Shown here one piece after another: positions 2,881 through 58,187 of a stretch of 64,000 nt of DNA. Positions within the stretch are counted from its first letter, which is position 1, and the number at the start of each line of letters is the position of its first letter. Location of the stretch: the NCBI GenBank assembly GCA_020724955.1, contig DYFY01000001.1, positions 2,046-66,045 on the forward strand, in the 5' to 3' direction. Source of the stretch: Candidatus Parvarchaeum sp. (lineage in GTDB: Archaea > Nanobdellota > Nanobdellia > Pacearchaeales > GW2011-AR1). The position numbers and the translations under genes were made by a program. Under the pieces are notes generated by a model. That model ran no database searches. It saw only the letters and a program-made list of their open reading frames with translations, and was not told the origin of the DNA.

Positions 2881-5682
2881 TTAATTCAGCCTGCAGATTT
2901 TAATGCCAAACTCATGATTTTTGATTTTAAACTCGGCAAAACCATTTTTGTCGTCGGTAAATTCGATTTTTTTTGAGTTTGTTCTTTCTCTGATAAATTC
3001 AAGCTGATTTTTCAGCTTTTTTGCCATTTCAGAATCCGCATTTATATAAAGCTCTATCGGATTCTCTTTTTTAAGACCCATGTTTTTTCTTTCAGCCTGA
3101 ACTCTTCTGGCAATCTCTCTGGCAAAACCCTCTGCTTCGAGCTCGGGAGTTATTTTAGTGTCAAGCTCAACTTTTATTTCACTTGTTTTTTCTTTTTTCC
3201 AGACTATTTTTTTTATGTTAAGCTCATCAAGAATTATTTTTTCTAATTTGTTACTAAGCTTTATACCATAGACAGAGATTTTTAAAAGAGGTTGCCTAAC
3301 AGATATTCCATTTCTATCTCTTTCCTTCAGGGCTAAACTAACTAATTCTCTAGCCAAATCCATTTCTTTATTTAATTTATCATTTATTTTGTTGGTTTCA
3401 ACTTTAGGCCAGCTTTGTAGATGCACAGATCTTTTATACATTTTGAGATAGATAGACTCGGTCGAGAAAGGAAGAACAGGAGCAAGGACTCTACAAGTTT
3501 TCTCCAACACAATTTCTAACACTTTTTTAGCTTCACCAGCTTCATCACTATTAAATCTATCTCTGCTTCTTCTTAAATACCAAGTAGATAAGTCCTCTAT
3601 AAATTTTCTAATGTGTCTAGTAGCGTTCACGCTATCGTATTCATTAAGGGATTTTTCTACATCTCTATTTAGCTCGTTTAGTCTGGATATTATCCATTCA
3701 TCCAAGATATTTTTTGATCTAACAATTTTGGCAGATCTGATGTCTGAATTCATAGAGTAAAAGTTGCTTACATTGTAAAGAAGCAAGAGAACTTTCTTAT
3801 ATATCTCCTCCACACCTTTCTCAGAAAACCTCACATCTTCGGATTTCATAACTGGAGAATCCAGAAAATAAAATCTCAACGCATCCGCTCCAAATTTCTC
3901 AATCATTTTCATTGGATCCGGGAAATTACCTTTTGACTTGCTCATTTTTTCTCCATCTTCAGCTAAAATATTCCCAGTAGTTAAAACATTTAGAAAGGGA
4001 GGTTTTCCAAATACTAGTGAAGACACGACGAGGCTATAATAGAACCATGTTCTAGTTTGAGCTATATATTCTGAAACAAAATCTCCTGGAAAGTTATTCT
4101 CGAACCATTTCTTATTCTCCATTGGGTAATGAACCTGGGCAAAAGGCATAGATCCAGATTCAAACCAACAGTCCATAACTTCAGAAACTCTGCTCATAGA
4201 CTTTCCACATTTACACTTAAGTCTCACTTTATCCATCATATGTTTGTGTAAATCTAATTTAGGTGGAAGATTAATTGCTTCTTTCTTAAGTTCAGCCACA
4301 CTTCCAATAACTTTTATTTCTCCACAATCACATTTCCATATAGGGATTACAGAAGCCCAATACCTATTTCTAGAAATGTTCCAGTCAGGCGCACTTTCCA
4401 AATTTTTTCTAAATCTTCCTTCTTTAAGATAATGCGGAAACCAATTTATCTTTTCGTTATTCTTTAACAATAATTTTTTCATTTTTTGTATATCGATAAA
4501 CCAGGAGGGGAGCAAGGCATAGAATAAAGGAGTGTTACACCGATAACAGAAGGGATAAGAATGGAGATGCTTTTCTTTTTTGTACAATAGGTTTCTCGAC
4601 TCTAAATCTTCTATAACTTCTTTATCAACATCCTTAAACCATTTGCCTATCCATTTTCTAGGCCCCAAATTTAATTTTCCCTCTTTACCTATGTGTTCTA
4701 TCAGGGGAAGATCATATTTCTTAATCATTTCATAATCAAATTCCCCGTAAGCAGCCATATGTACTATTCCTGTTCCGTCTATAGTGCTAACGCCATCTCC
4801 TCCAGAGATTACATAATAGCCTCTCTTTTCTGTTGGAATATTATAAAGGGGTTCATATTCTGTATCTTCTAAATCAGAGCCTTTAAATTCAGACAATATT
4901 TTGTATTCCCCAGTTAGTTCATTTAATCTTTCTGTTGCAAGAATGTAGACTTCACCTTTGTTCTTGATTTTAACATATTTGGCACCGGGGTTTACTGCCA
5001 AAGCAGCATTTCCTACTAGAGTCCAAGGTGTAGTAGTCCAAGCTAGGAGGAACTCATCTTTGTTTTTAATTTTAAATTTAACAACGACACTTTCTTCTTT
5101 AATATTCTTGTAGCTGTTATCCATGGCAATCTCTGCATTTGCAAGAGGAGTTTCGCATCTAGGACAATAAAGCAGCACTTTTCGGCCTTCGTAAATTAAA
5201 CCCTTCTTCCATATTTCTTTAAATGCCCACCAAACAGACTCCATATATTTATTGTCCATTGTTTTGTAAGATTTATCGAATTCAACCCATCTACCAAGTC
5301 TTTCTATTGTGTTTTTCCATTCATTAGCATAGCCTAAAACCATTTTTCTGCAACTTTCACAGAATTTATCCACACCATAACGCTCTATATCTTTTTTAGA
5401 TTTAAACCCGAGTTTTTTTTCAGCTATATTTTCAACGGGAAGCCCATGACAATCCCATCCCCAAACTCTTTCAACTTTATACCCTTTCATTGTCCAGAAC
5501 CGGGGTATGGTGTCTTTTATTGTGCTAGCTAACAGATGTCCATAATGTGGCAATCCAGTGGCAAACGGAGGCCCGTCATAAAAAACAAAGCTTTTCTTTT
5601 TTCCAACTAAAGATTTCTGAAAAGTTTTATCTTTTTTCCAGAATTTCAAAACTTCAAGTTCTCTGGAGCTCACATCAACCAT
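2881..5682 (-). CDS. ileS: Isoleucyl-tRNA synthetase, eukaryote/archaea type
   Basis: HIGH-region motif GPPFATGLPHYGHLL and the KMSKS motif KMSKSKGN. 933 aa, class I long-editing architecture. Confidence 0.9.
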   Translation of the reverse strand: MVDVSSRELEVLKFWKKDKTFQKSLVGKKKSFVFYDGPPFATGLPHYGHLLASTIKDTIPRFWTMKGYKVERVWGWDCHGLPVENIAEKKLGFKSKKDIERYGVDKFCESCRKMVLGYANEWKNTIERLGRWVEFDKSYKTMDNKYMESVWWAFKEIWKKGLIYEGRKVLLYCPRCETPLANAEIAMDNSYKNIKEESVVVKFKIKNKDEFLLAWTTTPWTLVGNAALAVNPGAKYVKIKNKGEVYILATERLNELTGEYKILSEFKGSDLEDTEYEPLYNIPTEKRGYYVISGGDGVSTIDGTGIVHMAAYGEFDYEMIKKYDLPLIEHIGKEGKLNLGPRKWIGKWFKDVDKEVIEDLESRNLLYKKEKHLHSYPFCYRCNTPLFYALLPSWFIDIQKMKKLLLKNNEKINWFPHYLKEGRFRKNLESAPDWNISRNRYWASVIPIWKCDCGEIKVIGSVAELKKEAINLPPKLDLHKHMMDKVRLKCKCGKSMSRVSEVMDCWFESGSMPFAQVHYPMENKKWFENNFPGDFVSEYIAQTRTWFYYSLVVSSLVFGKPPFLNVLTTGNILAEDGEKMSKSKGNFPDPMKMIEKFGADALRFYFLDSPVMKSEDVRFSEKGVEEIYKKVLLLLYNVSNFYSMNSDIRSAKIVRSKNILDEWIISRLNELNRDVEKSLNEYDSVNATRHIRKFIEDLSTWYLRRSRDRFNSDEAGEAKKVLEIVLEKTCRVLAPVLPFSTESIYLKMYKRSVHLQSWPKVETNKINDKLNKEMDLARELVSLALKERDRNGISVRQPLLKISVYGIKLSNKLEKIILDELNIKKIVWKKEKTSEIKVELDTKITPELEAEGFAREIARRVQAERKNMGLKKENPIELYINADSEMAKKLKNQLEFIRERTNSKKIEFTDDKNGFAEFKIKNHEFGIKICRLN

Positions 5683-8914: not shown

Positions 8915-9298
8915 TTACTTTCTCTTCTTATTAGGAAACGCCCATTTTCCAAGACCAAAAGCATACATCACAATTAACGATACGAATATCAGCAAATCTC
9001 TTTCCAGTCCGGAGCCAATTCCTCTTTCCATTGAGCCGGGTATTTGAACTCCGAGCAGAGCCACTATTATTACTGCAAACAACGGATATATTATGTAAGG
9101 GAACCATAAGCCGATAATTAACAAGATTCCGAACACTACTTCCACTATCCCGACCAACATTCCAATTTCTCCGGGAAGCCCTAAAAGAGCCGGAGAGCTT
9201 CCTATTTTGGGATATCCATGCCAGACAAAAACAAGCCCAACCAGAACTCTAAGCAAAAATAATGAAATTCCTTTCACAGACTCTTTATTGCTCGGCAT
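8915..9298 (-). CDS. DoxX-family membrane protein
   Basis: LLRVLVGLVFVWHGYPKI and four TM helices are typical of DoxX. Confidence 0.65.
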   Translation of the reverse strand: MPSNKESVKGISLFLLRVLVGLVFVWHGYPKIGSSPALLGLPGEIGMLVGIVEVVFGILLIIGLWFPYIIYPLFAVIIVALLGVQIPGSMERGIGSGLERDLLIFVSLIVMYAFGLGKWAFPNKKRK

Positions 9299-9408
9299 GT
9301 AGCGGAGAGCTTTTCGGACTTTTTATATCTTTTTGTTTTTTAAATAAGAGCGCTTAAAATTGCACAAAAAAGCCAGTCTTACTGAATATGAAACAAAGAT
9401 GATCTTCT

Positions 9409-9651
9409 TTATTTTTCATATTTGTTTTCTTTCAGCTTTTTTTCAGCCCTTTCAATCATATTCTTCTTCAGACCTATGAACACACCGCCGTCCTTTCCGC
9501 CGACGTAAGTGTTTTCTCCTGATTTTATTATTTTGTTTAATTCAGGGAGCTCTATATCAATGTGAGTTACACTGGCATTTGATTTGCCTTTCAGGTGCAG
9601 ATAAACATCTGCTTTTCCGATTTTTATTTTTCCTTCTCCAGGTCCTGACAT
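9409..9651 (-). CDS. Hypothetical small protein
   Basis: 80-aa Gly/Lys-rich ORF with no recognisable motif. Confidence 0.35.
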   Translation of the reverse strand: MSGPGEGKIKIGKADVYLHLKGKSNASVTHIDIELPELNKIIKSGENTYVGGKDGGVFIGLKKNMIERAEKKLKENKYEK

Positions 9652-9703
9652 AAATTAAGCAGGACGCTAAAGTTTAAAAGTGCTTCTTTGCCATTAATAT
9701 TGC

Positions 9704-9779
9704 AGCGGGGTGGAGTAGCCTGGTTAACTCGCGAGGCCCATAACCTCGAGATCGCGGTGTTCAAATCCCGCCCCCGCTA
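9704..9779 (+). tRNA. tRNA-Met(CAT), initiator-like A1:U72
   Basis: Acceptor AGCGGGG/CCCCGCT. D stem GAGT/ACTC. Anticodon stem CGAGG/CCTCG with loop CCCATAA. T loop TTCAAAT. A1:U72 is characteristic of archaeal initiators. The T stem needs a bulged U, so the fold is slightly irregular. Confidence 0.75.
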
Positions 9780-9797
9780 TATGAAAAAAGGAGTGAG

Positions 9798-10466
9798 ATG
9801 TTGATTTTAGGCATAGACGACGCAGGACGCGGGCCTTTGATAGGGCCTATGGTTTTGGCAGGTGTTCTTGTTACGGCGGAGCAGGAAAAAAAACTGAGGT
9901 CTTTAGGGGTAAAAGACTCAAAGCTTGTTTTACATTCTTCAAGAATAAAAATAGCAAAGGAAATAGAAAAAATATCCAGGAGAGTTTATCTTGTGATTTC
10001 AACTCCGGAAGAAATAGATTTTTCAATAAGTTCTGGAATTAATTTAAACACTCTGGAAGCAAAAAAAACAGCGGAGATAATTAATTTTTTGAATTTAAAA
10101 AAGGAAAAAATAAAAGTCATAGTTGACTGCCCGTCTGTCAATACAGTTGCCTGGAAAAATAAGCTTCTTGAGTTTATATCCCACGCAGAAAATCTGATTG
10201 TTGTTTGCGAACACAAGGCGGATTTCAATCATCCTTCAGTATCGGCGGCGTCTATTCTTGCCAAAGTAAGGAGGGAAGAGGAAATTTCCAGATTAAAGGA
10301 AAAGTTTGGGGATTTCGGTTCAGGATATCCTTCCGACCCTTTGACGAAGAATTTTCTTAAAATGCGCGGAAATGCCCTGAAGAATTCCGGAATATTCAGA
10401 AAAACATGGGCTACCTGGAAAGATGTATTCCCGGATAAAAAACAGAAGAAGCTGTTTGACTTCTGA
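9798..10466 (+). CDS. rnhB: Ribonuclease HII
   Basis: LGIDDAGRGPLIGPMVLAGVLV, the RNase HII active-site motif GIDEAGRGP. 222 aa. Confidence 0.85.
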   Translation: MLILGIDDAGRGPLIGPMVLAGVLVTAEQEKKLRSLGVKDSKLVLHSSRIKIAKEIEKISRRVYLVISTPEEIDFSISSGINLNTLEAKKTAEIINFLNLKKEKIKVIVDCPSVNTVAWKNKLLEFISHAENLIVVCEHKADFNHPSVSAASILAKVRREEEISRLKEKFGDFGSGYPSDPLTKNFLKMRGNALKNSGIFRKTWATWKDVFPDKKQKKLFDF

Positions 10467-42527: not shown

Positions 42528-42929
42528 TTAATATCTATGATAATAATATCCGTCATGATATTTTGGATAATAATATCCTCTGTAATCATAAGAAGAGCGA
42601 TAATAGCTGTCTGAATAATAAGGGTCTATGTAATGCACTCTTGGATAATTATATGTGTAATGAGGGTAAGAAGGCCCGTAACTCCAGTAATTGTAGACTC
42701 TGTTGTACGAGGGATAGTGCCTATAATAATCTTCTGAAGAATAATAATAAGTTGTTTTGGAGGGGGAGTCCTTTTTTATTTCTGTTGTTTTTCCGTAAGG
42801 AGTGTAGGTTGTTGTTTTCGAGTAGCTGTCTGTGTAGCCGTAATGGTACGCTGACGCAACCGGTGTTACTAAGAGAGCCAGCAGAGCAATCAATGAAATT
42901 CCAAGCGTGAAAAAAAGCTTTTTATTCAT
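42528..42929 (-). CDS. Secreted tyrosine-rich low-complexity protein
   Basis: Signal peptide, then roughly 30% Tyr (YYYSSEDYYRHYPSYNRVYNYWSYGPSYPHYTYNYPRVHYIDPYYSDSYYRSSYDYRGYYYPKYHDGYYYHRY). Confidence 0.5.
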   Translation of the reverse strand: MNKKLFFTLGISLIALLALLVTPVASAYHYGYTDSYSKTTTYTPYGKTTEIKKDSPSKTTYYYSSEDYYRHYPSYNRVYNYWSYGPSYPHYTYNYPRVHYIDPYYSDSYYRSSYDYRGYYYPKYHDGYYYHRY

Positions 42930-43104
42930 GATTTTCCGACGACGTTCTGATTTATAAACATTTCGGGGGTTGTCTTTTTGTAGTTACGTCCAATGCGGCC
43001 AAGAACAATAAAGAATAAAAATGTTTGCGCTGAATTTTCTAAATTATAAGCTGGACTTAACATGGAAAAAAGATTTAAAAACTGACATTGCAACATTTAG
43101 ATAA

Positions 43105-43248
43105 GCCTCAATAGTATAGTGGTTAGTACATCGCCCTGTCGCGAGGCAAGGGAGCCAAGGTTTCCTTGACCATCAATTTTCCTTTAAAATAGGAGTTCGG
43201 TGACCTCGTAGAACGGCGGAGACCCGGGTTCGATTCCCGGTTGGGGCG
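43105..43248 (+). tRNA. tRNA-Asp(GTC) with a 72-nt intron after anticodon-loop position 37
   Basis: Exon 1: GCCTCAA-TA-GTAT-AGTGGTTA-GTAC-A-TCGCC-CTGTCG. Intron at 43142-43213. Exon 2: C-GGCGG-AGAC-CCGGG-TTCGATT-CCCGG-TTGGGGC-G. All stems pair. Confidence 0.75.
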
Positions 43249-43335
43249 TCTTGTTTTTGGGTATATTATAAGTCGCAAATTCCGAACTCTCTTTATAAAG
43301 GATAAATATTAATAGAAGAAGAGTTTGTTATTTCT

Positions 43336-43743
43336 ATGAATAAACATTTAAAAAATTGTGGGAAAAATGTTGTAAAAAGTGCGATTGATTGTTCTCAACT
43401 AATAGGCAGACAAGACGCATTAGGTGCAACATCTTGTCTTATGAGTTTGAAAGAAACAGCAGATTCTTGTATAAAGGCAATAAAAGAGAATCCTCAAATG
43501 GGAGTTCAGAAAAGAGATTTTCAGATTAAAAATAGACCAATTCCAGTCTATCCAAGATACAGATATCGAGAAAGACTTGATGAAGACTTGCCAGAAATTA
43601 CCACTAGATCAAAATCGATCAAGATAAATTTAGTTTGTCAGCAATGTCACAATCAACAAAGCAGGTTCATCAAGACTGGAGAAGAAACTACGATAGTCTG
43701 TCAATTTTGTGGGTGCGTAAGCAACTTTTCTATTAAAAACTGA
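43336..43743 (+). CDS. Hypothetical protein with a C-terminal C4 zinc ribbon
   Basis: CQQCHNQ...CQFCGC at the C-terminus. Immediately upstream of the HEPN protein in the same orientation. Confidence 0.5.
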   Translation: MNKHLKNCGKNVVKSAIDCSQLIGRQDALGATSCLMSLKETADSCIKAIKENPQMGVQKRDFQIKNRPIPVYPRYRYRERLDEDLPEITTRSKSIKINLVCQQCHNQQSRFIKTGEETTIVCQFCGCVSNFSIKN

Positions 43744-43772
43744 ATCTTGTAAATGTCAATAAATAAAAACCA

Positions 43773-45617
43773 TTGAATTATTGGTTTTATATGACAAGAG
43801 AGAAGATAAATCAAATAATGGATGCGGAGTATGAAAGAATGTATCCTTTTGAGATAGAAAGAGAACTCTTGCCCCTCTTTAAATTAGCTGAAGAAAATAA
43901 GGATGAGGTAACCAAACAAGAAATTTTATGGGAGATAGATTTGCTTAATCGAACTATGGGGCATGTAGTCGTTTATCAAGGAAAAGAGGTCGCAGAAGTT
44001 AGTAACAAATGGGGACTTTTATTAGAAACTGGTGAATTTAAAGCAATATCAAACGCACCCTTTTGTGAATGGAAAAGAGAAGCCATTGATTATTACAAGG
44101 AAAGATATGGTCAAACAAAAAGCAGTTTGGCAAAAGCAAGATATGCCTTTGCAGTTATGGTATTTTCTTCTGGAACTGAAAGGCTAGAATGGATGAGTAA
44201 ATCTGTAGATAACTGGCTAAAAACAGCTAAAGACTATATAACCAAGAAAGTATACAACAAAGAATATTATGAACTCCCACCATTTGCTTATGAATTTGCA
44301 TTGAAGTTGAGCCTGTCTTTTGGAAACAAGGATTTGGCTAAAAAAGTTTTAGAATCATTACATACAAATATAATATCTATCTTAAGTTTTGGAGAGAAAA
44401 GATGGTATCTAGAATTCTTTGAAGTAGAATCAAAATATATTCACTCATTAGATAATGTTGATGAAATAAAAAAAGAAAGTGTGGAGAAGATAAAAGAGAT
44501 CATTAAACAGTTAGAGTCTGAATTTGAAAAAAGTGAGGATAAACAGAAAAGCAATCATTTCATAAGACATCATCTTCGCATTTTATTGAACTATAAAACA
44601 GAAAATGATTATGACTTAAATCAAAGGATTGCTGAGTCTTATATTACAGAGGCAGAAGCGAGAGAAGAAGCACTTGTTAAATCTTCTTTTTATAACGATG
44701 CGGTTAAAAAGTATAAAGAAATGCAAGGGAAATATTCTGACAAAAAACAAGAAATTGAAAAAAGACTTGAAGAATTAATTCTTAAAATGAAGGAAATCAA
44801 CTCTAAAATAACTTATAAAACAATTCAAACAGAGATTACAGTAACTAATAAACAAATTGAAGAATATTTGAATCATTTAAGAGGTAGAAAAAAAGATTTG
44901 TTAATTGCATTTCTAGAGGATAATTCTTTGTTCCCCAAGTATGATCAAACCATAAAGATGACTGAAGACCAGAAGAAGCAACATCCACTTCAGTTTATTG
45001 TGCCCATTGCAGTTTATAGCGGAGAAGACCCAATTATGAAAATGACAAATGATACCGATATATTTGACCATAAAGTTAGAAGAAATATTTTGTTAGGATT
45101 AAAAATAGGAGAGATTATGTGCAAGATGATATTTGAATTGTTAAAGAAAGAGCCAGAGGTAGACATCTTAAAGGCTACTGAAAGTTTGATTAGTCAAGAT
45201 GAAATAAAGAACATTAAACCTACGTTGAGCACTGGCTTTAACCATGTCTTTGGAGAGAAAAAAGATTTTGTTGCAGGATTACACATTCTAACACCTTATA
45301 TCGAAGAAGTAATACGAATGATAATAAAAAAAGCTGGAAAAGTTGAGATTGTCTTGGAACAACATAAAACCAAATTTTTCAGGGGCATCGAACTTGGGGG
45401 ATTATTGTCTGATAAAAATGTTGAAGAACTTATAGGTTTGGATTTTCAAAAATCATTAAAGGTCATGTTCATAGATAATGACCAGTCAAATATAAGAAAT
45501 GAATTATTGCATGGAAGATTATCTTCAGATAGAATTAATGAATCTCTCGCTTTGTTTGTGTCCTATTGCTTACTAAAATTGATAAACATCCTCAGGGATA
45601 CCAATAAGAAGCAATAA
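43773..45617 (+). CDS. Large hypothetical protein with a C-terminal HEPN-like domain (Rx4H motif, DUF4145/Abi-like)
   Basis: Near the C-terminus, [10 protein letters not shown] contains R-x4-H in the RNxxxHG form common to HEPN/Abi RNase domains. The N-terminal ~450 aa is helical with no motif I recognise. Confidence 0.5.
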
Positions 45618-45624
45618 TAAGGGA

Positions 45625-46391
45625 GTGTATAGGGCATACAAAAGTATAAACTTTATATATGTGCTCTATTGTAACTATATTATGTTAGACATAAAAACTT
45701 TGGAAGGGTGGCTTTGGGAAGCTGCTTGTAAGATTCGAGGAGAAGTTGATGCCGCAAAATACAAAGATTATATTCTCCCTTTGATTTTCTTAAAAAGATT
45801 ATCTGATTTTTATGAAGACGACATTCAAAAGCTAACTGAAGAATATGGGGATAAAAAACGTCTGAAGAGTTGGTTGAAGAAGACCATAGTTTAGTCTGGT
45901 TTTATCTGCCAAAAGAATCAAGGTGGTCAAATATTATAAAACAGACTACAAAACTTGGAGAGATTCTTACTGATGCTGTTCGTTCTGTTGCAAAGACAAA
46001 TCCAAAACTTCAGGGAGTTATCGATTTTGTAGATTTTAATGCAACTGCTTCAGGTCAAAGAATTGTGGGCGATGATAAACTAAAATTACTAATTGATATT
46101 TTAAACAAACATAGACTTGGCTTGAGAGATGTTGAGCCAGATATTTTAGGTAGAGCTTATGAATATTTATTAAGAAAATTTGCAGAAGGCTCGGGACAAA
46201 GTGCAGGAGAATTCTATACTCCTAGAGAGGTTGCTGTTTTGATGGCGATGGTTGTTGAGCCAAAAGAAGGAGAAGAGGTTTACGATCCATGTTTGGGTTC
46301 TGGTGGTTTGTTAATAAAATGTCATTTAAGATTCAAAGAAAACTATGGAAACAACACAAAAATTAAACCTTTGAAATTCTATGGGCAATAA
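45625..46391 (+). pseudogene. hsdM: Type I restriction-modification HsdM methyltransferase, frameshifted and 3'-truncated
   Basis: Two overlapping ORFs in different frames (45625-45894 and 45870-46391). They carry the HsdM N-domain ([17 protein letters not shown]) and the motif region DILGRAYEYLLRKFAEGSGQSAGEFYTPREV...DPCLGSGGLL. Translation stops right after FYGQ, before the catalytic motif. Confidence 0.7.
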
Positions 46392-46427
46392 TTTTTGCAA
46401 GCAAGTTACTTAAGGGAGCCGTAATTA

Positions 46428-46760
46428 AATGTCAAGATTATGAAGATATAAAAAAATATGTTAAGAAAGGAGATTTTGTTTATTTAGATCCTTGTTACGA
46501 TCCTATTAAAAAAACTAGTTTCGCTAATTACACTCCGAAAAGATTCTCACATGTTGATAATATCAGACTATCTAATTTTATAGATGAGCTAAGAAAAAAA
46601 GAATCTAAAGTTATGCTCAGCAATAATTTAACTATAAATGTTAAGAGATTATATCCATTAAAAGAATATTACAGAACTAAGGTAGAAGGTTCTAGAAGCA
46701 TAAGTGGACTGAGTTATGGAAGAGGAAAGATCCCAGAATTGCTGGTTACAAATTATTAGC
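46428..46760 (+). pseudogene. Dam-like (D12 class) N6-adenine DNA methyltransferase, C-terminal remnant without start
   Basis: Hand translation gives ...GDFVYLDPCYDPIKK...FSHVDNIRLSNFIDELRKKESKVMLSNN...RSISGLSYGRGKIPELLVTNY*. This matches the Dam motif IV region (DPPY degenerated to DPCY) and the Dam C-terminus. No start codon; upstream stops. Confidence 0.55.
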
Positions 46761-46887
46761 TATTGAAATCAAACCGAAAATTAGTTAAACTTCCTCGTCT
46801 TCAACTCATCAAATGCTCTTACAAAAGAGAGGAAAAACAAAGAGAACATAAGCGCGGGATGACTAATTTGAGGAAGGATTCTATTAT

Positions 46888-48351
46888 CTATTTTTTTCTG
46901 AATGAAACTGCCAGAGATGCCAAAATTGGAATTATTACAACTGCCCAACCGATTGAGAGGGCCCACGCGGGATAGCCTTCGTAGGGATTTGCTATGTCTG
47001 TAATTAATTGATTGATTAGAAGAATAATCAGCGCGAGAGGTATTATGTATTTTATTGAAACATTCCACCATTTTCCAACTTTTGCTCCGCCTGAGCTGTT
47101 AAGAAACAATCTCATTTTTTCTGCCCCATATACCCATCCAACAGCTATTGAAGTGAAAAGACCTACAAGGATTATGACATAGTTTGTTACAAAATGGTCA
47201 ACTATATCTAAGATGTACAGCCCTGCTCCTGTTGTGAAAATAATTCCGAGAACGAATGCGGTTGAGCAGGTTAATAGCGCTATTTTTTTGCTATTTGGGT
47301 TCTTTTGCCTGTCTGCAATGACTGCGTTGACTCCTTCGATTAAGGAAAAGGCGCTGTCTATTCCAAGCGTCAGAAGCATTAGGAAAAATAGTGCCGCAAA
47401 GAACCATGCGAAAGGCATTAGGGAAAGCGCTTCTGGAAACACGACAAATGCAAGGCCAGGACCAGAAGTTATTGCATCTTCGATTGGAACATTGTTTGCG
47501 AAAGCCATGTAACCAATTATTGAGAATACCACGAATCCTGCCAGGAGGCCGATCGCCGCATCGGAAATAGAGGTTATGTAGGCGTTTCCGACAGCCCTGT
47601 CTTTCTTTTTATTGTAACTTGCGTAGGCAATCATGACTCCAAAGCCGACGCTGAGCGAGAAAAATATCTGAGATGTTGCAGCCATCCATAATTCAAGACT
47701 CAGCAAAGCAGAAAAATCAGGATTAAGATAGGCTATAATTCCTTCTAAAGAACCTGGAAGAGTTATTCCTCTTATGAGCAGGATGAAGAGAAGAATAACC
47801 GGAAGAGGCATTGTTATCACTACCACTTTTCCGACGCTTTTCACTCCTTTCCAGACTATAAAGTAAATGGCTATCCAGACAGCAAGCAGGGCTGTTAAAA
47901 CAGGCCATTGTATCCCTCCAAGTATGTTCACACTTTCAGTAAGTCCTAGAACATCGGTGAAGAAATATGATTTTGAATTTCCTGCCCAAGGAAGCCTTGG
48001 GTTGAATGACTTTAGAAAGAACAGAAGAGACCACGCGAGAACAACAGCGTAATAAATTACGACAATAAATGAGGCAAATATTGCGGCTATTCCTACTCCT
48101 GAGAGTTTTTTATTAATTGCTCTGAAGGATTCCACTGCTCCTTTCTGCATTTTTTGACCTATTGCAAATTCAAGAATCAAAAGGGGAATTCCAATAATGA
48201 ACAACGCCAGTATGTAAGGGATTAAAAAAGCTCCTCCTCCGAATTTGTGAGTCAGATAGGGAAAGCGCCAGACATTTCCCAGGCCAACTGCGCTCCCAAT
48301 CGCTGCAAATATGAAGATTGTTCTGGAGGCCCAGCGCGCTCTGTCAGCCAT
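46888..48351 (-). CDS. Sodium-dependent transporter, SNF/NSS family
   Basis: GNVWRFPY signature and 12 TM helices. Confidence 0.85.
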   Translation of the reverse strand: MADRARWASRTIFIFAAIGSAVGLGNVWRFPYLTHKFGGGAFLIPYILALFIIGIPLLILEFAIGQKMQKGAVESFRAINKKLSGVGIAAIFASFIVVIYYAVVLAWSLLFFLKSFNPRLPWAGNSKSYFFTDVLGLTESVNILGGIQWPVLTALLAVWIAIYFIVWKGVKSVGKVVVITMPLPVILLFILLIRGITLPGSLEGIIAYLNPDFSALLSLELWMAATSQIFFSLSVGFGVMIAYASYNKKKDRAVGNAYITSISDAAIGLLAGFVVFSIIGYMAFANNVPIEDAITSGPGLAFVVFPEALSLMPFAWFFAALFFLMLLTLGIDSAFSLIEGVNAVIADRQKNPNSKKIALLTCSTAFVLGIIFTTGAGLYILDIVDHFVTNYVIILVGLFTSIAVGWVYGAEKMRLFLNSSGGAKVGKWWNVSIKYIIPLALIILLINQLITDIANPYEGYPAWALSIGWAVVIIPILASLAVSFRKK

Positions 48352-53295: not shown

Positions 53296-53922
53296 ATGAC
53301 AAATTTTTCAGACGGAGAAGAAAATAGCTTTGGGAGCAATCCAGAAGAGGACCCTATTTTTCTTGCAGAAAAAAGATATAAGGGTGTTGCTGATTCAGTC
53401 GCTTCTCTGGGAAAATACTTTTTAGGGGATTCTGAAGAGATTGGATTTTTTAGACGTTATCTGGATAAATCTGCTGAAGTTATGAGCAGAGAACTTTCTT
53501 CAGAACAGCCAGCTCTTGTTCACTTTGTTGAGCAGTCCAGAAGAACAATTCCCAGAAATGTTGAAATAATTGCAGAGATATGCCACTCAGTTATAGATGT
53601 TAATTTTGATAAGCTTGTTGATGAGAGAGTTAAGAATTCTGATTTTCTCCACTATGCTTCTCCTGAGATATATGGGTCTCACTTGGACTCTTTTAGAAGA
53701 GCGAAAATATCTGGTTTGTTGTCAACTTGTTTTAGAAATGGGGTTGAAGTCCTGGACTGCCTAAATGATACTCTCTATGCTTTTTCTGTGGCTTTAAAAT
53801 CTTCTCAAGAGCCGTATCCAGCAGGGGTTAAAGCCTTAGAAGCTTATGTTGCTGAGGCAAGAGATTTTCTCAGTGAGGCTATGACGGATTTGAGGAAAAA
53901 TCTAATGATTGCCAGAATTTAA
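53296..53922 (+). CDS. Hypothetical protein
   Basis: 208-aa helical ORF with no motif. Confidence 0.4.
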   Translation: MTNFSDGEENSFGSNPEEDPIFLAEKRYKGVADSVASLGKYFLGDSEEIGFFRRYLDKSAEVMSRELSSEQPALVHFVEQSRRTIPRNVEIIAEICHSVIDVNFDKLVDERVKNSDFLHYASPEIYGSHLDSFRRAKISGLLSTCFRNGVEVLDCLNDTLYAFSVALKSSQEPYPAGVKALEAYVAEARDFLSEAMTDLRKNLMIARI

Positions 53923-55301
53923 TCTGCTTCTCTCGCCGAGGTCTCCGCTGCAAAATATGCTTTGTTTGATGTAACTTTCAGGGTTTTTCCGTCTTTTTCA
54001 TAGATAGCTGTTGCCTGCGGGATTTCAAAACGCCCCACTATTTTTATTTTTGAATATATTATGTATGTGAATGAGCGCTCTTCTCCTGCATTAAGGGAGT
54101 TGATGTTCCAGAAAATTCTTCTGGTGTTTGCGTCAACTTTGTCGGGCTTGACAGGGAATTTTTCGTAGACTTTTGCTATTGCCGGGACTTTATCTATCAG
54201 CTGGATTTTGTCCACGTGGCGCTTCGCTTTTACATTTATCCTTACTCTAAGAGCCAGTTCATTGCCTTTGGTTTTTACGAAAGAAATTTTCTTTGTCACG
54301 ACAAGTGAAGTTTCAAGGAATATTTTTACAGATAAAACCAGGAGAACTACAAGAACAGCCAGAATAAAAGGAAATGTATAGTTGGTTTTCTCGATTACGA
54401 TAAGGGACTCATTCGGCTTCAGCTCTTTGCTCCATCTATATTCGGCAAAAAATCCGCTTTTTGCAGAATAATCAGGCTTTAAATTATATGTTGTAAAAAG
54501 CCTTGTCAGGATATCTTTCTTTTTTTCAATCTCAGCGGTTATTTCAGTATTTCCAACATTTGTTTTTTTGAGTGTTGTTTCTCTGACTAAAAACCCAGAG
54601 GAATCCTCTGAAACAGCAAGCCCTTCCTTTTCCAGATAATTGAAGCCTGTTTTTTTCTCTGCGCTTTTACCAGAATATGAAATCAGAATATCAGCTTCAT
54701 AATTTCCTGCCACAAGTTTTTTTGATTTTTCAGGATTTATCCCGGCTTTTATTGTAAGCATTTCCTTTTGCGCAAGATTTATTTCATCCTCTAGCTCGAA
54801 AAAAGGAGATTCTATTTTGACAGACAAATCTTCAAGAGCTATTTTCTCCAGGTTTATGATTTTTATTTCTGCTTCACTATCTCCAGGGTTTATGTCCTTG
54901 ATATTTATATCCAAGAGGTCGGCAAGTTCAATTATTTTGACCTGGATTTTTCCTTCTGTCCCTTTGTTTTTCTGGCTGTATATTTCATAAGAGATGAGAA
55001 ACTCTCCTCGGGTTTTTTTCAGAGTTTCATCTGAAAATACTCCTTCAACATCAATTTTTTTTGTTTCACCTGAATTAATTGTGAATTTATTTGGAGAGAA
55101 GCTAATCCCTGCAAAACTGAATATCTCAAACTCGTCTGTGTCTCCTGTGTTTTTTATTGAGAAGCTGTATTTTATCGGATTGTTGAGCTCCGCTATCACC
55201 ACTGAATTTATCTCTTCTGATTTTATATCAAGAGCCTGCGCCATGCCTGCGGGCAAAAAAATGAAAGAGCATAAAAGCAGCAAAATCAAGATTTTTTCCA
55301 T
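53919..55301 (-). CDS. Secreted, membrane-anchored surface protein
   Basis: Signal peptide MEKILILLLLCSFIFLPAGMAQA, a beta-rich body, and a C-terminal TM (FPFILAVLVVLLVLSVKIF) followed by a ~150-aa cytoplasmic tail. Confidence 0.5.
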   Translation of the reverse strand: MEKILILLLLCSFIFLPAGMAQALDIKSEEINSVVIAELNNPIKYSFSIKNTGDTDEFEIFSFAGISFSPNKFTINSGETKKIDVEGVFSDETLKKTRGEFLISYEIYSQKNKGTEGKIQVKIIELADLLDINIKDINPGDSEAEIKIINLEKIALEDLSVKIESPFFELEDEINLAQKEMLTIKAGINPEKSKKLVAGNYEADILISYSGKSAEKKTGFNYLEKEGLAVSEDSSGFLVRETTLKKTNVGNTEITAEIEKKKDILTRLFTTYNLKPDYSAKSGFFAEYRWSKELKPNESLIVIEKTNYTFPFILAVLVVLLVLSVKIFLETSLVVTKKISFVKTKGNELALRVRINVKAKRHVDKIQLIDKVPAIAKVYEKFPVKPDKVDANTRRIFWNINSLNAGEERSFTYIIYSKIKIVGRFEIPQATAIYEKDGKTLKVTSNKAYFAAETSAREAD

Positions 55302-55342
55302 GGCAGTTTCACATGGAATTTCTATATAAATATTGTGATGTT

Positions 55343-55858
55343 CTATGAGGGTCTTTTTTTTCCTACGAGCTCAAAATAAGCTTTCATTTCGTCTGTGAAT
55401 TTTTGAGTGATTTCTCTTACTAAGTCTTGTTTTTCTTCAATTCTTTGGGGGATTATGTATTTCTGATACAGCTCTTTAAAGAACTTATGAATTGGATTAG
55501 GCTCCCATTTGTTGGACCAGTCTTTTTCAAGGATGCCTTTCACAGTTATGCTTAACTCCGAAAATTTATTTGACTCTTTTTTCTGCCCGTCTATTTCTAT
55601 CTCAACTTCCTTCATTCCAAGCAGTTTCCAGGCAATTTCCAAGGTTATACGGAAATAATCTGATATTTTTACAGATGCGTTCCATTTTATTTCTATGTCT
55701 TTTGCTCCGCCGGCCTGTATTTTTTCAGAATAGAGTTTTTCCGTGACGTCGAATTCGTTTTCTCTCAGCCAGTCGTATGCAAAGATATATGCATCTTCTA
55801 GTTTTGCTATCCCTTTGTAAAAAATCTTCTCCTTCAATACGTTGTCTTTTTCCACCAT
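55343..55858 (-). CDS. Hypothetical protein
   Basis: 171-aa ORF with no motif. Confidence 0.4.
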   Translation of the reverse strand: MVEKDNVLKEKIFYKGIAKLEDAYIFAYDWLRENEFDVTEKLYSEKIQAGGAKDIEIKWNASVKISDYFRITLEIAWKLLGMKEVEIEIDGQKKESNKFSELSITVKGILEKDWSNKWEPNPIHKFFKELYQKYIIPQRIEEKQDLVREITQKFTDEMKAYFELVGKKRPS

Positions 55859-55905
55859 CTTTAACTCAGATATTTAAGAAGAGTTCTATTTAAAGGTTTT
55901 CAGAT

Positions 55906-56441
55906 TCAATACAGTTCATCGTAGCAGTCATGGCAGAGCCATCGCCCCTCAAACTTCATTAGGTCTGAAAGAGCTCCGCATTCCTCACATAGCCCATCGG
56001 ACAGCGAATCTTCCTCTGTTTTTGCCAGTTTCCTGAGTTTTTCGGCTTCTTCTCTTATGTCTGCAAGGTCTCCAAGCTGGTTGTACAGCAACGGGTCAAC
56101 CCTCAAAATATCTTTTAATGTAATCATTCCAACTAATTCATTCCTTGACAGGACGGGAAGCCTTCTGAATCCGTATTGCCTCATTTTCTGCAAAGCCTGA
56201 CTTATGTCTGCGGAAGGTTTAACCACTGCAACTTTTTTTGTGGCTATGTCTGTCACCTTCAGGTCTTTTAAGTCTTGGCTTGACTTCTTGATTATCGCCC
56301 AAAGGATGTCTCTTGCAGTTATTATTCCATAAAGCTTTTTTTCTTGGCTACTAAGACGCTGTTTACCCTTTCTTTTACCATTTCTTTTGCGCATTTATGC
56401 AGATTTGTGTCTGGAGTAACAGAAACAAAATTTCTTGTCAT
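55906..56441 (-). CDS. CBS-pair protein with a C-terminal C4 zinc ribbon, interrupted by a frameshift at an A7/T7 homopolymer
   Basis: Downstream part (track ORF 55906-56394) carries CBS 2 and CEECG...CHDCYDELY. The upstream reading frame, translated by hand (MTRNFVSVTPDTNLHKCAKEMVKERVNSVLVAKKK), is CBS 1. It ends one base out of phase at the T7 run at 56336-56342. Confidence 0.55.
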
Positions 56442-56579
56442 TATGTCTCCGACAGCTACTCTTCTTGCCACGCTTAGAAAACTAAGTTTTTCTATATAAG
56501 GATTTATGTTCTTTAAGCCTCTTTTTATATGGTGCTGGAATGTAAAAATGTTTAAAAGAGTGGTTCTTGCAGAAATAGA

Positions 56580-58187
56580 ATGAGCGACAAACAGCCTGTT
56601 TATATTCTTCCTGAGGGTGTTTCCAGAACTGTCGGCAGAGACGCGCAGAGAAATAATATTCTGGCAGCCAGAGTGATTGCGGAAGTTGTTAAAACGACTC
56701 TTGGACCAAAAGGCATGGACAAAATGCTTGTTGATTCAGCAGGGAATATTGTGGTCACAAATGACGGAGTCACCATACTCAATGAGATGGAAATAGAGCA
56801 TCCTGCCGCAAAGTTAATTGCAGATATAGCCAAAACCCAGGAAGAAGAAGTCGGTGATGGAACTACAACTGTAGCTATGCTGGCAGGCCAGCTTCTTGAA
56901 AACGCTGAGAAGCTTTTGGACAGAAGGATACATCCCAGCGTGATAGTCCGGGGATACGGACTTGCTTCGGAAAAAGCATTAGCTATTCTCAAAGAGATAT
57001 CGTTTCAGGTTGAAGACAGGCGGGTGCTGAAGCAGATTGCGATGACTGCCATGACCGGAAAGGGCGCAGAGGGAAACAGGGAAAGATTTGCCGAGTTGAT
57101 TGTCAGCGCAGTTGACAGAATTGCTGACAAGAGAGCTGTCAATTTGGAAGACATAAAGATACAGAAAATTAAAGGAGAGAGTTTTGAAAACAGCGAGCTG
57201 GTTGATGGAGTTGTTTTTGAAAAAGAAATTGCTCATGATGGAATGCCGAGAAAGATAGAAGGAGCAAGAATAGCTTTGATTGATTTTGCTCTTGAGCTGA
57301 AAAGTCCGGAAGCTGAGACGAAAATATCAATATCCAGCCCAGAACAGCTTCAAGGTTTTATAGAGTCCGAGGAAAAGAACCTTAAAGCTCTCACAGATAA
57401 AATTATCTCTTCCGGAGCAAATGTTGTTTTCTGCCAGAAAGGGATTGATGATGTGGCTCAGTATTATCTTGCCAAGTCGGGGATTTTGGCATGCAGAAGG
57501 GTATCAAAATCAGATATGATTAAGATAGCAAGAGCCACTTCCGGGAAGATAGTTTCTAATGCGGCAGAATTGGATGCAGGAAGTTTTGGAACTGCTAAAA
57601 TAGTTGAAGAGATCAGGAGGGGCGATGACGGAATGATGTACATAAGAGGCTGTGAAAATCCGAAAGTTGTAACTCTTCTTATCAGGGGAAGCACCGAGCA
57701 TGTTTTGGATGAAGTTGAGCGTGCTATTAAAGACGGCCTTGGTGACGTTTCCGCTGCTTTGAGAGATGGAAGAGTTGTTTCTGGAGGAGGAGCTGTTGAA
57801 ATTGAGCTTGCCAAAAGGCTGAGAGAGTTCTCAAGAACTTTATCCGGCAGAGAGCAGCTTGCTGTGGAAGAATTTGCAAATTCCTTAGAGTGCATTCCTG
57901 AAGCTCTTGCTGAAAATGCCGGGCTTGACCCGATAAATGTGCTTACTGAACTAAAGAAGAGACATGAGTCTGGAATGGCAAGGGAAGGGCTGAACTTGTT
58001 TAATGACCAGATAGAAGACTGTTTTTCGGCAGGAATTGTTGAGCCGATGAAAGTGAAGAAACAGGCGATAATTTCTGCGACAGAAGTTGCAACAATGCTT
58101 TTGAGAATTGATGATGTTTTGATTTCTTCTGGAGCTGGAACCGGAAAACAGCTACAGAACCGGAATCCATATGAAGGAATGGATTGA
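56580..58187 (+). CDS. ths: Thermosome subunit (group II chaperonin)
   Basis: N-terminal RNNILAARVIAEVVKTTLGPKGMDKMLVDSAGNIVVTNDGVTIL and the ATP-binding block VGDGTTTVAMLAGQLL. 535 aa. Confidence 0.9.
   Translation: MSDKQPVYILPEGVSRTVGRDAQRNNILAARVIAEVVKTTLGPKGMDKMLVDSAGNIVVTNDGVTILNEMEIEHPAAKLIADIAKTQEEEVGDGTTTVAMLAGQLLENAEKLLDRRIHPSVIVRGYGLASEKALAILKEISFQVEDRRVLKQIAMTAMTGKGAEGNRERFAELIVSAVDRIADKRAVNLEDIKIQKIKGESFENSELVDGVVFEKEIAHDGMPRKIEGARIALIDFALELKSPEAETKISISSPEQLQGFIESEEKNLKALTDKIISSGANVVFCQKGIDDVAQYYLAKSGILACRRVSKSDMIKIARATSGKIVSNAAELDAGSFGTAKIVEEIRRGDDGMMYIRGCENPKVVTLLIRGSTEHVLDEVERAIKDGLGDVSAALRDGRVVSGGGAVEIELAKRLREFSRTLSGREQLAVEEFANSLECIPEALAENAGLDPINVLTELKKRHESGMAREGLNLFNDQIEDCFSAGIVEPMKVKKQAIISATEVATMLLRIDDVLISSGAGTGKQLQNRNPYEGMD

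Follow-up and report, generated by a model that had tools for sequence, protein, structure and literature searches.

We examined a 64,000-nt stretch of Candidatus Parvarchaeum sp. DNA (contig DYFY01000001.1, positions 2,046 to 66,045, forward strand), referred to here as the window, in which a group of defense-related genes lies next to an intron-containing tRNA-Asp(GUC) gene. An earlier note, made from the sequence alone, had described four elements in one orientation beside this tRNA gene, and all four are found 3′ of it, on the plus strand, in the open reading frame (ORF) listing and with Pfam and Rfam (Table 1). They comprise a gene for a 135-amino acid (aa) zinc-ribbon protein, a gene for a large protein with a C-terminal HEPN domain of the DUF4209 family, an hsdM pseudogene in two pieces, and the remnant of a D12-class methyltransferase gene. 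The G+C content of this islet is 30–34%, compared with 37–41% in both flanks. The only intact genes left in it are the DUF4209 HEPN gene and the 135-aa zinc-ribbon gene, and the decayed defense islet is a real feature of the window.

Table 1. Features of the islet, with positions in the window.
Feature	Position	Strand	Evidence or remark
tRNA-Asp(GUC) with intron, left islet border	43105–43248	+	Rfam tRNA match of 51.5 bits, in which ~75 nt are inserted after the anticodon; ARAGORN intron mode
Leader with TATA-like box TTTATAAA at about 43292–43299	43249–43335	+	Upstream of the 135-aa gene
135-aa Cys-rich protein with C-terminal CxxC...CxxC zinc ribbon (CQQC...CQFC)	43336–43743	+	ORF listing
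608-aa DUF4209/PDC-S39 protein: N-terminal alpha-helical repeat region and C-terminal HEPN domain	43791–45617	+	Pfam, PADLOC, AlphaFold
HEPN domain, aa 455–608, with E505-x3-R509 and N567-x-R569-N-x3-H574-G575	45153–45614	+	Motif NIRNELLHG at 45489–45515
hsdM pseudogene, 5′ piece (HsdM_N)	45625/45682–45894	+	HsdM_N, E = 9.3e-15; PADLOC MTase_I
hsdM pseudogene, 3′ piece, ending in KFYGQ and a stop	45855/45870–46391	+	N6_Mtase positions 3–83 of 311; different frame
Start-less C-terminal third of a D12-class (Dam-like) N6-adenine methyltransferase	46394–46759	+	PF02086 positions 154–240 of 253, E = 8e-13

The DUF4209 HEPN protein and its small putative partner

The large gene likely begins at the ATG at 43791 and encodes 608 aa, because an identical database copy has this length; an alternative TTG start at 43773 (43773–45617) would yield the 614 aa given in the earlier note. 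The HEPN domain and NIRNELLHG motif that the note had placed in this protein are both present, but the family is DUF4209 (PF13910) and not DUF4145 or Abi_2. PF13910 covers aa 510–599, scoring 34.8 bits with the full protein as query and 37.9 bits with the domain alone (gathering score, 22.3 bits). Two PADLOC models of the candidate defense system PDC-S39 also match the protein, PDLC05012 (E = 8e-35, aa 101–417 to model positions 94–402 of 615) and PDLC05011 (E = 1.8e-21, aa 494–609 to model positions 470–583 of 595). In the protein database, 57 homologues were recovered, with PF13910 found in all but one partial sequence, and the named sources are assemblies of Nanoarchaeota, Aenigmarchaeota, Micrarchaeota, Woesearchaeota, and Pacearchaeota.

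R-x4-H and E-x3-[KR] motifs are hallmarks of HEPN RNases (PMC3710099). In 39 aligned homologues, down to 27% identity, N567, R569, H574, and G575 are invariant, as are H498, P502, E505, and R509, with E505 and R509 lying in the segment PYIEEVIR. When aa 455–608 are modeled in isolation (predicted local distance difference test score, pLDDT, of 91.8), the top structure matches are, almost without exception, solved HEPN domains: 2jpu, AF0298, Csm6, AbiA, SO_3166, a HEPN/MNT toxin, and sacsin, followed by LsoA, RnlA, AbiV, and MtlR. Because profile, motif conservation, and fold agree, membership of the C-terminus in the HEPN superfamily is confirmed, with the fold, the Rx4-6H motif, and the Ex3[KR] motif all in place; the fold of the C-terminus and the conservation of the R and H of its motif were the two points on which the earlier note had wanted this assignment checked.

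The N-terminal ~450 aa had been described as helical and as matching nothing recognizable. The AlphaFold model of the large protein (pLDDT 91.1) bears out the first of these statements, with the N-terminal part folding as an all-helical repeat. The second does not stand, as the region has relatives: aa 101–417 align with the PDC-S39 model in its N-terminal part. Strongly conserved motifs within this region are PFCEW (aa 90–94), Y101, R105, KARY (aa 115–118, with R117 and Y118 invariant), W205, and Y308. No P-loop or ABC match was found in the N-terminal 454 aa with Pfam, even at E ≤ 10, a PDB sequence search with the family profile returned no relative, and neither a viral structure library nor phage genomes gave a significant match.

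The small protein ends, as the earlier note had read it, in a CxxC...CxxC ribbon. Searches of Pfam, NCBIfam, and PADLOC gave no match above threshold, only sub-threshold ribbon matches (TFIIB, aIF2-beta). A word-indexed search found four homologues of 70–76% identity, all in the closest DUF4209 clade, while a HMMER profile run against 1.84 billion representative sequences recovered the protein's own cluster alone; it is an ORFan known from 3–4 contigs. Conservation is concentrated in the N-terminal 55 aa, which include four invariant Cys residues, and in the C-terminal ribbon. Compared with a homologous pair at another locus, L035, the ratio of non-synonymous to synonymous substitution rates (dN/dS) is 0.25 for the 135-aa gene (dS 0.74) and 0.09 for the 608-aa gene (dS ~0.9), which indicates that the pair is under purifying selection. 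The dN/dS of 0.25, together with the conserved N-terminus and ribbon, shows that the 135-aa ORF is a real gene, and neither it nor the 608-aa ORF, both of which have homologues, is a chance reading frame.

The earlier note had suggested that zinc-ribbon and HEPN proteins could form an uncharacterized abortive-infection or toxin module. The two genes do stay together in the closest relatives; however, the pairing is confined to a tiny clade and the HEPN protein belongs to a described family. Since other loci carry different genes upstream of DUF4209, the zinc-ribbon pairing is a narrow lineage variant. At most of these other loci, the upstream gene encodes a protein of ~300 aa and overlaps the DUF4209 start by 8–41 nt (L003, at 9037–9990, L004, L006–L009, L013–L016, L019, L021, L022, L027, and L028). 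This family has no Pfam match, and its invariant residues are E233, I279, R280-x4-H285, and N314. From the invariant E...R-x4-H pattern alone, the ~300-aa protein looks like a second HEPN-type Rx4H protein, although hhalign detects no significant link between this family and the DUF4209 C-terminus (probability 0.6%); hhalign likewise finds no match between the ~300-aa family and the 135-aa protein. Elsewhere, the upstream position is occupied by two genes of 128 and 94 aa, by a 192-aa gene with sub-threshold HEPN matches in Pfam, or by helicase genes.

Decayed methyltransferase genes and related loci

The hsdM gene is split, as had been claimed, across two frames that carry HsdM_N and N6_Mtase separately, and it stops right after FYGQ. 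The break between the two pieces is a −1 frameshift that maps to a run of six A residues (45853–45858), where a run of seven would restore reading into the second piece, and two independent assemblies, L001 and L002, share the identical split. The truncation is a lesion separate from this frameshift, and the 3′ piece lacks catalytic motif IV and all that lies beyond it. With hsdM split and incomplete, and hsdS and hsdR absent, the window does not hold a functional type I restriction-modification (R-M) system. Adjoining the hsdM stop is the D12 remnant (FVYLDPCY...LVTNY, then a stop), which matches MethyltransfD12 and so agrees with the start-less Dam C-terminal fragment of the earlier note. 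It is not a full-length enzyme, its DPPY motif has degraded to DPCY, and it has no relatives in any other locus examined. This arrangement is best explained by a deletion, which would have brought the last third of a Dam-like methylase gene up against hsdM immediately behind FYGQ.

What the islet may once have contained is illustrated by its closest relative, JGI 3300075153 (85% identity), where genes for 135 and 608 aa stand ahead of hsdM (506 aa), hsdS (398 aa), a 107-aa gene, and hsdR (964 aa). Because the same pair there heads an intact R-M operon, the islet is evidently a truncated version of this arrangement. In L035, also at 85% identity, the 135-aa and 608-aa genes are again kept together but stand alone, with a convergent, unrelated gene starting 3 nt past the DUF4209 stop; conservation of the pair in related genomes had been among the points raised by the earlier note.

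A further 34 loci were surveyed by ORF calling, clustering, and Pfam searches on family representatives. Type I, type III, or IIG R-M genes lie within 10 kb of the homologue at sixteen loci, and a tyrosine recombinase lies within 10 kb at ten. The neighboring genes include type III-like R-M systems, with an N6_N4 Mod and a Res gene (L003, L011, L016, L017, and L021), type I R-M systems, where the DUF4209 gene often sits between hsd genes (L008, L009, L010, L020, L033, and L034), an Eco57I-type methylase with a PLD-SNF2 helicase and a Schlafen/AlbA_2 gene (L004 and L022), and GmrSD and PD-(D/E)XK genes (L011). These settings agree with the suggestion of a former defense or mobile island, with the closest relative holding the pair ahead of an intact type I R-M operon and the distant relatives lying within R-M loci, often near tyrosine recombinases. 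A conserved, syntenic housekeeping context, which would have spoken against that suggestion, is not what the relatives show; their neighborhoods are defensive or mobile, and non-syntenic.

DUF4209 genes of ~600 aa are also carried by bacterial and haloarchaeal plasmids, and these match the window protein only in its C-terminal domain. On the Klebsiella pneumoniae IncF plasmid NZ_CP132652.1 (L042), a solitary 595-aa DUF4209 gene (185140–186927) lies between umuDC and an IS110 transposase, near antirestriction, ssb, and psiB genes, a setting that suggests a role in plasmid entry rather than in R-M backup. The gene on an Aeromonas plasmid adjoins a methyltransferase and helicase pair, and that on a Natrinema plasmid is near a restriction endonuclease.

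Recurrent junctions at tRNA genes

The left border of the islet is shared with loci in which a different tRNA gene stands upstream. Homology of the window to L035 and L036 begins inside the 3′ exon and T-arm of the tRNA-Asp gene, from 43210/43226, and the leader and 135-aa gene follow tRNA-Asp in the window, tRNA-Glu in L036 and L038, and tRNA-Arg with a 23-nt tRNA 3′-end fragment in L035. Within the leader, TTTATAAAGGATAAATATTAATAGAAGA is identical across the window, L035, and L036/L038, though the preceding tRNA differs in each; together with the TATA-like box, this suggests that the leader acts as an archaeal promoter. A scan for bacterial sigma-70 promoters and terminators was at chance level, using a bacterial model that is unsuited to an archaeal host.

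In L035, the order is tRNA-Arg(UCG), a 23-nt copy of the T-arm and acceptor 3′ end of a tRNA, and then the window-like leader. The fragment (GGGTTCAATTCCTCGTGGGGGCG) lies ~45 nt downstream of the tRNA gene, right ahead of the cassette leader, and part of the 5′ end of the tRNA-Arg(UCG) gene is duplicated beside it (5369–5385, within L035:5369–5560). The tRNA fragment arrangement looks like the scar of an attachment (att) site. In L036 (9737–10285) and L038 (893–1441), the leader follows tRNA-Glu(CUC), what remains of the small gene encodes 94 aa, and there is no DUF4209 gene; these loci are a more decayed stump of the same cassette. The junction of the cassette with the 3′ end of a tRNA gene thus recurs in independent genomes, as in integrative elements that target tRNA genes, and its position beside three different tRNA genes fits tRNA-targeted integration followed by progressive deletion.

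The tRNA-Glu(CUC) genes of L036 and L038 contain a 103-nt intron and are detected by ARAGORN in intron mode only. With its default settings, the program finds six tRNAs in the window and misses the intron-containing tRNA-Asp, and further intron-containing tRNAs in this genome may escape default scans.

Another DUF4209 island, in the Woesearchaeota locus L003, comprises a type III R-M system and the ~300-aa partner, and is beside two intron-containing tRNAs. It lies ~6 kb from a four-gene housekeeping block (L003:18250–21811) that is inverted relative to its counterpart in the window (53919–57000), which is ~8 kb from the islet. The two genomes may share a defense-island hot spot.

Proposed function and competing explanations

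We consider it probable that 43105–46760 is the remnant of a mobile defense islet adjoining a tRNA gene in a low-GC archaeon, itself probably a DPANN member (Woesearchaeota-like), and extend the same degree of confidence to the following mechanism. In its original form, the islet would have been a zinc-ribbon and DUF4209 HEPN cassette heading an hsdM-hsdS-x-hsdR operon, as in the 85%-identical relative. The −1 frameshift in the A run of hsdM and a deletion would then have destroyed the R-M part, leaving the cassette intact. The HEPN domain would be a metal-independent endoribonuclease that uses R569 and H574, with the N-terminal helical-repeat region either restraining it or sensing infection. 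Once triggered, it would cut cellular or viral RNA and cause abortive infection, acting as a second line of defense coupled to R-M, by analogy with PrrC. The 135-aa protein would be a lineage-specific regulator, antitoxin, or adaptor of the HEPN protein.

The elements of this proposal can be compared with systems that have already been described. The occurrence of HEPN genes inside R-M operons has been recognized since 2013, when DUF4209/C6orf70 was assigned to the catalytically active HEPN families, with the remark that it "occurs in R-M related operons" and a distribution of "Bacteria > Eukaryotes" (Anantharaman et al., 2013, PMC3710099). The window protein resembles this family (PF13910) in scoring above the Pfam threshold, in its Rx4H and E-x3-R motifs, in its HEPN fold, and in its R-M setting. 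It differs in that its clade consists of DPANN archaeal metagenome assemblies, most members of which have a translationally coupled upstream gene, a feature undescribed for the family. The PDC systems were identified through "guilt-by-embedding", their genes lying within BREX, DISARM, and type I R-M loci (Payne et al., bioRxiv 10.1101/2024.01.29.577857). For PDC-S39, PADLOC reports a bacterial copy in P. aeruginosa PAO1 (PMC11878078). Both PDC-S39 models match the window protein, which shares with that system a single polypeptide of ~600 aa and an association with type I R-M. However, PDC-S39 is defined as a single-gene system, while the window gene has an ORFan zinc-ribbon gene as its partner and decayed R-M genes as neighbors. 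The DUF4209/PDC-S39 family itself is therefore not new, and the locus is an archaeal addition to an already catalogued candidate defense family.

PrrC, from the EcoprrI type Ic locus, is likewise encoded by a HEPN-type RNase gene among hsdM, hsdS, and hsdR, and a backup logic has been proposed for it in which a latent RNase acts when restriction fails (PMC3710099). In contrast, the PrrC N-terminus is an ABC-ATPase, whereas that of the window protein is a helical repeat. Beyond the HEPN superfamily, the two share no sequence relationship. Membership of the window protein in PrrC/RloC was rejected because it has no N-terminal ABC-type ATPase. HEC-08, in which a DUF3644 HEPN domain is combined with zinc-ribbon-like domains, is validated in defense and needs the His of its Rx4-6H motif (bioRxiv 10.1101/2024.01.29.577857). 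It shares with the window the combination of HEPN and zinc-ribbon modules in a defense-embedded setting, but it belongs to the DUF3644 family, with the HEPN domain N-terminal and the ribbons in the same polypeptide, while the islet encodes the ribbon as an ORFan protein of its own and the large protein has its HEPN domain at the C-terminus.

Several observations weigh against a mobile defense islet with this mechanism. An assembly or sequencing artefact, or phase variation, could account for the hsdM frameshift, which falls within a homopolymer. The functional link between the 135-aa and HEPN proteins relies on co-occurrence in only three distinct contigs, and the small gene persists, truncated, without a HEPN gene in L036 and L038. 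The 145 PDC systems are explicitly untested candidates (bioRxiv 10.1101/2024.01.29.577857), and neither RNA cleavage nor antiviral protection has so far been demonstrated for any DUF4209/PDC-S39 protein. In the 64-kb window, tblastn found no integrase homologues, and no second copy of the tRNA-Asp 3′ end was found with up to 3 mismatches; direct repeats across 42900–47100 are short and at chance level only. Of the two signs of integration that the earlier note had sought in the tRNA 3′ flank, the left junction recurs with different tRNAs in relatives, but the direct repeat was not found in the window. The right border is placed between 46760 and the end (46888) of a convergent SNF transporter gene by inference only; homologues of this transporter reach no more than 67% identity and lie on non-syntenic contigs, which leaves no basis for an empty-site comparison. 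With no integrase and no distal tRNA 3′-end repeat in the window, neither the right border nor the way in which the islet arrived is proven.

Of the other explanations, the one to which we give most weight, tentatively and with more doubt than belief, builds on the varied upstream genes: the DPANN DUF4209/PDC-S39 HEPN protein would be the constant half of an autonomous two-component RNase module with an exchangeable upstream partner, one that moves between tRNA genes and outlives R-M systems. That partner would usually be the ~300-aa protein with its invariant Rx4H motif, and sometimes the ORFan zinc-ribbon protein or the 128- and 94-aa pair, and it would determine what triggers the RNase or help to build a hetero-HEPN active site. 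Less likely, the 135-aa and 608-aa proteins are a toxin-antitoxin (addiction) pair that stabilizes the island or a former element and has no antiviral role. It is well established that HEPN toxins can have small cognate partners, the structural matches include HEPN/MNT and SO_3166/SO_3165, and the order is suitable, a small upstream gene and then the large HEPN gene behind one conserved leader. Addiction would also account for the cassette outliving the R-M genes, and the pair does persist where these are decayed or absent (the window and L035, respectively). On the other hand, the 135-aa protein lacks the MNT/nucleotidyltransferase fold expected of a HEPN-MNT partner and matches no nucleotidyltransferase or antitoxin family in Pfam, NCBIfam, or PADLOC; other family members have different upstream partners or none, as in the single genes on the Klebsiella, Aeromonas, and Natrinema plasmids; and PADLOC models the family as a single gene. 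Addiction and abortive infection can, in any case, both hold.

It is rather improbable that the HEPN protein is an R-M accessory, masked and activated by HsdMSR in the manner of PrrC, which provides a precedent (PMC3710099), and that its gene in the window is a functionless relic that has not yet decayed. The nearest relative does have the HEPN gene co-oriented with and directly upstream of hsdMSR, and in L009, L010, and L020 it lies between hsd genes. Nevertheless, the ORF is intact, its dN/dS of 0.09 was obtained against L035, where an R-M gene is likewise not adjacent, and the family is joined to type I, type III, and IIG systems while also being solitary on plasmids; this variety of R-M partners speaks against a protein-protein dependence on one R-M type. 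Least credible, and very unlikely in our view, is a housekeeping role for the large protein in RNA processing or RNA binding, as predicted for eukaryotic C6orf70/ERMARD, with the R-M debris lying beside its gene by coincidence. Eukaryotic DUF4209 proteins are conserved cellular proteins (PMC3710099) and a helical-repeat scaffold is a generic N-terminus, but only 57 homologues were recovered, in a patchy distribution, their neighborhoods are variable, non-syntenic, and rich in R-M, GmrSD, and Schlafen-like genes and integrases, the islet has a lower G+C content than its flanks, and its left junction recurs with different tRNAs. The relic and housekeeping explanations are both disfavored by the low dN/dS in settings that lack R-M, the varied R-M partners, and the patchy, non-syntenic distribution.

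The mobile defense islet that we favor is seen here as one stage in a decay series of a single cassette: with an intact type I R-M system in JGI 3300075153, with a wrecked one in the window, alone in L035, and as a stump in L036/L038. This series is an argument for selection on the DUF4209 HEPN gene itself, beyond a role as an R-M accessory. The locus does not overturn current understanding; it extends PDC-S39, an untested defense candidate, into DPANN archaea, whose defense repertoires are poorly known. In most archaeal loci, DUF4209 is translationally coupled to the unannotated Rx4H family, which in turn offers a candidate hetero-HEPN system.

Outside the islet, just upstream of tRNA-Asp and on the minus strand, a 133-aa tyrosine-rich, low-complexity ORF (42528–42929), assigned to no family, has an N-terminal hydrophobic segment and is also present in L001/L002.

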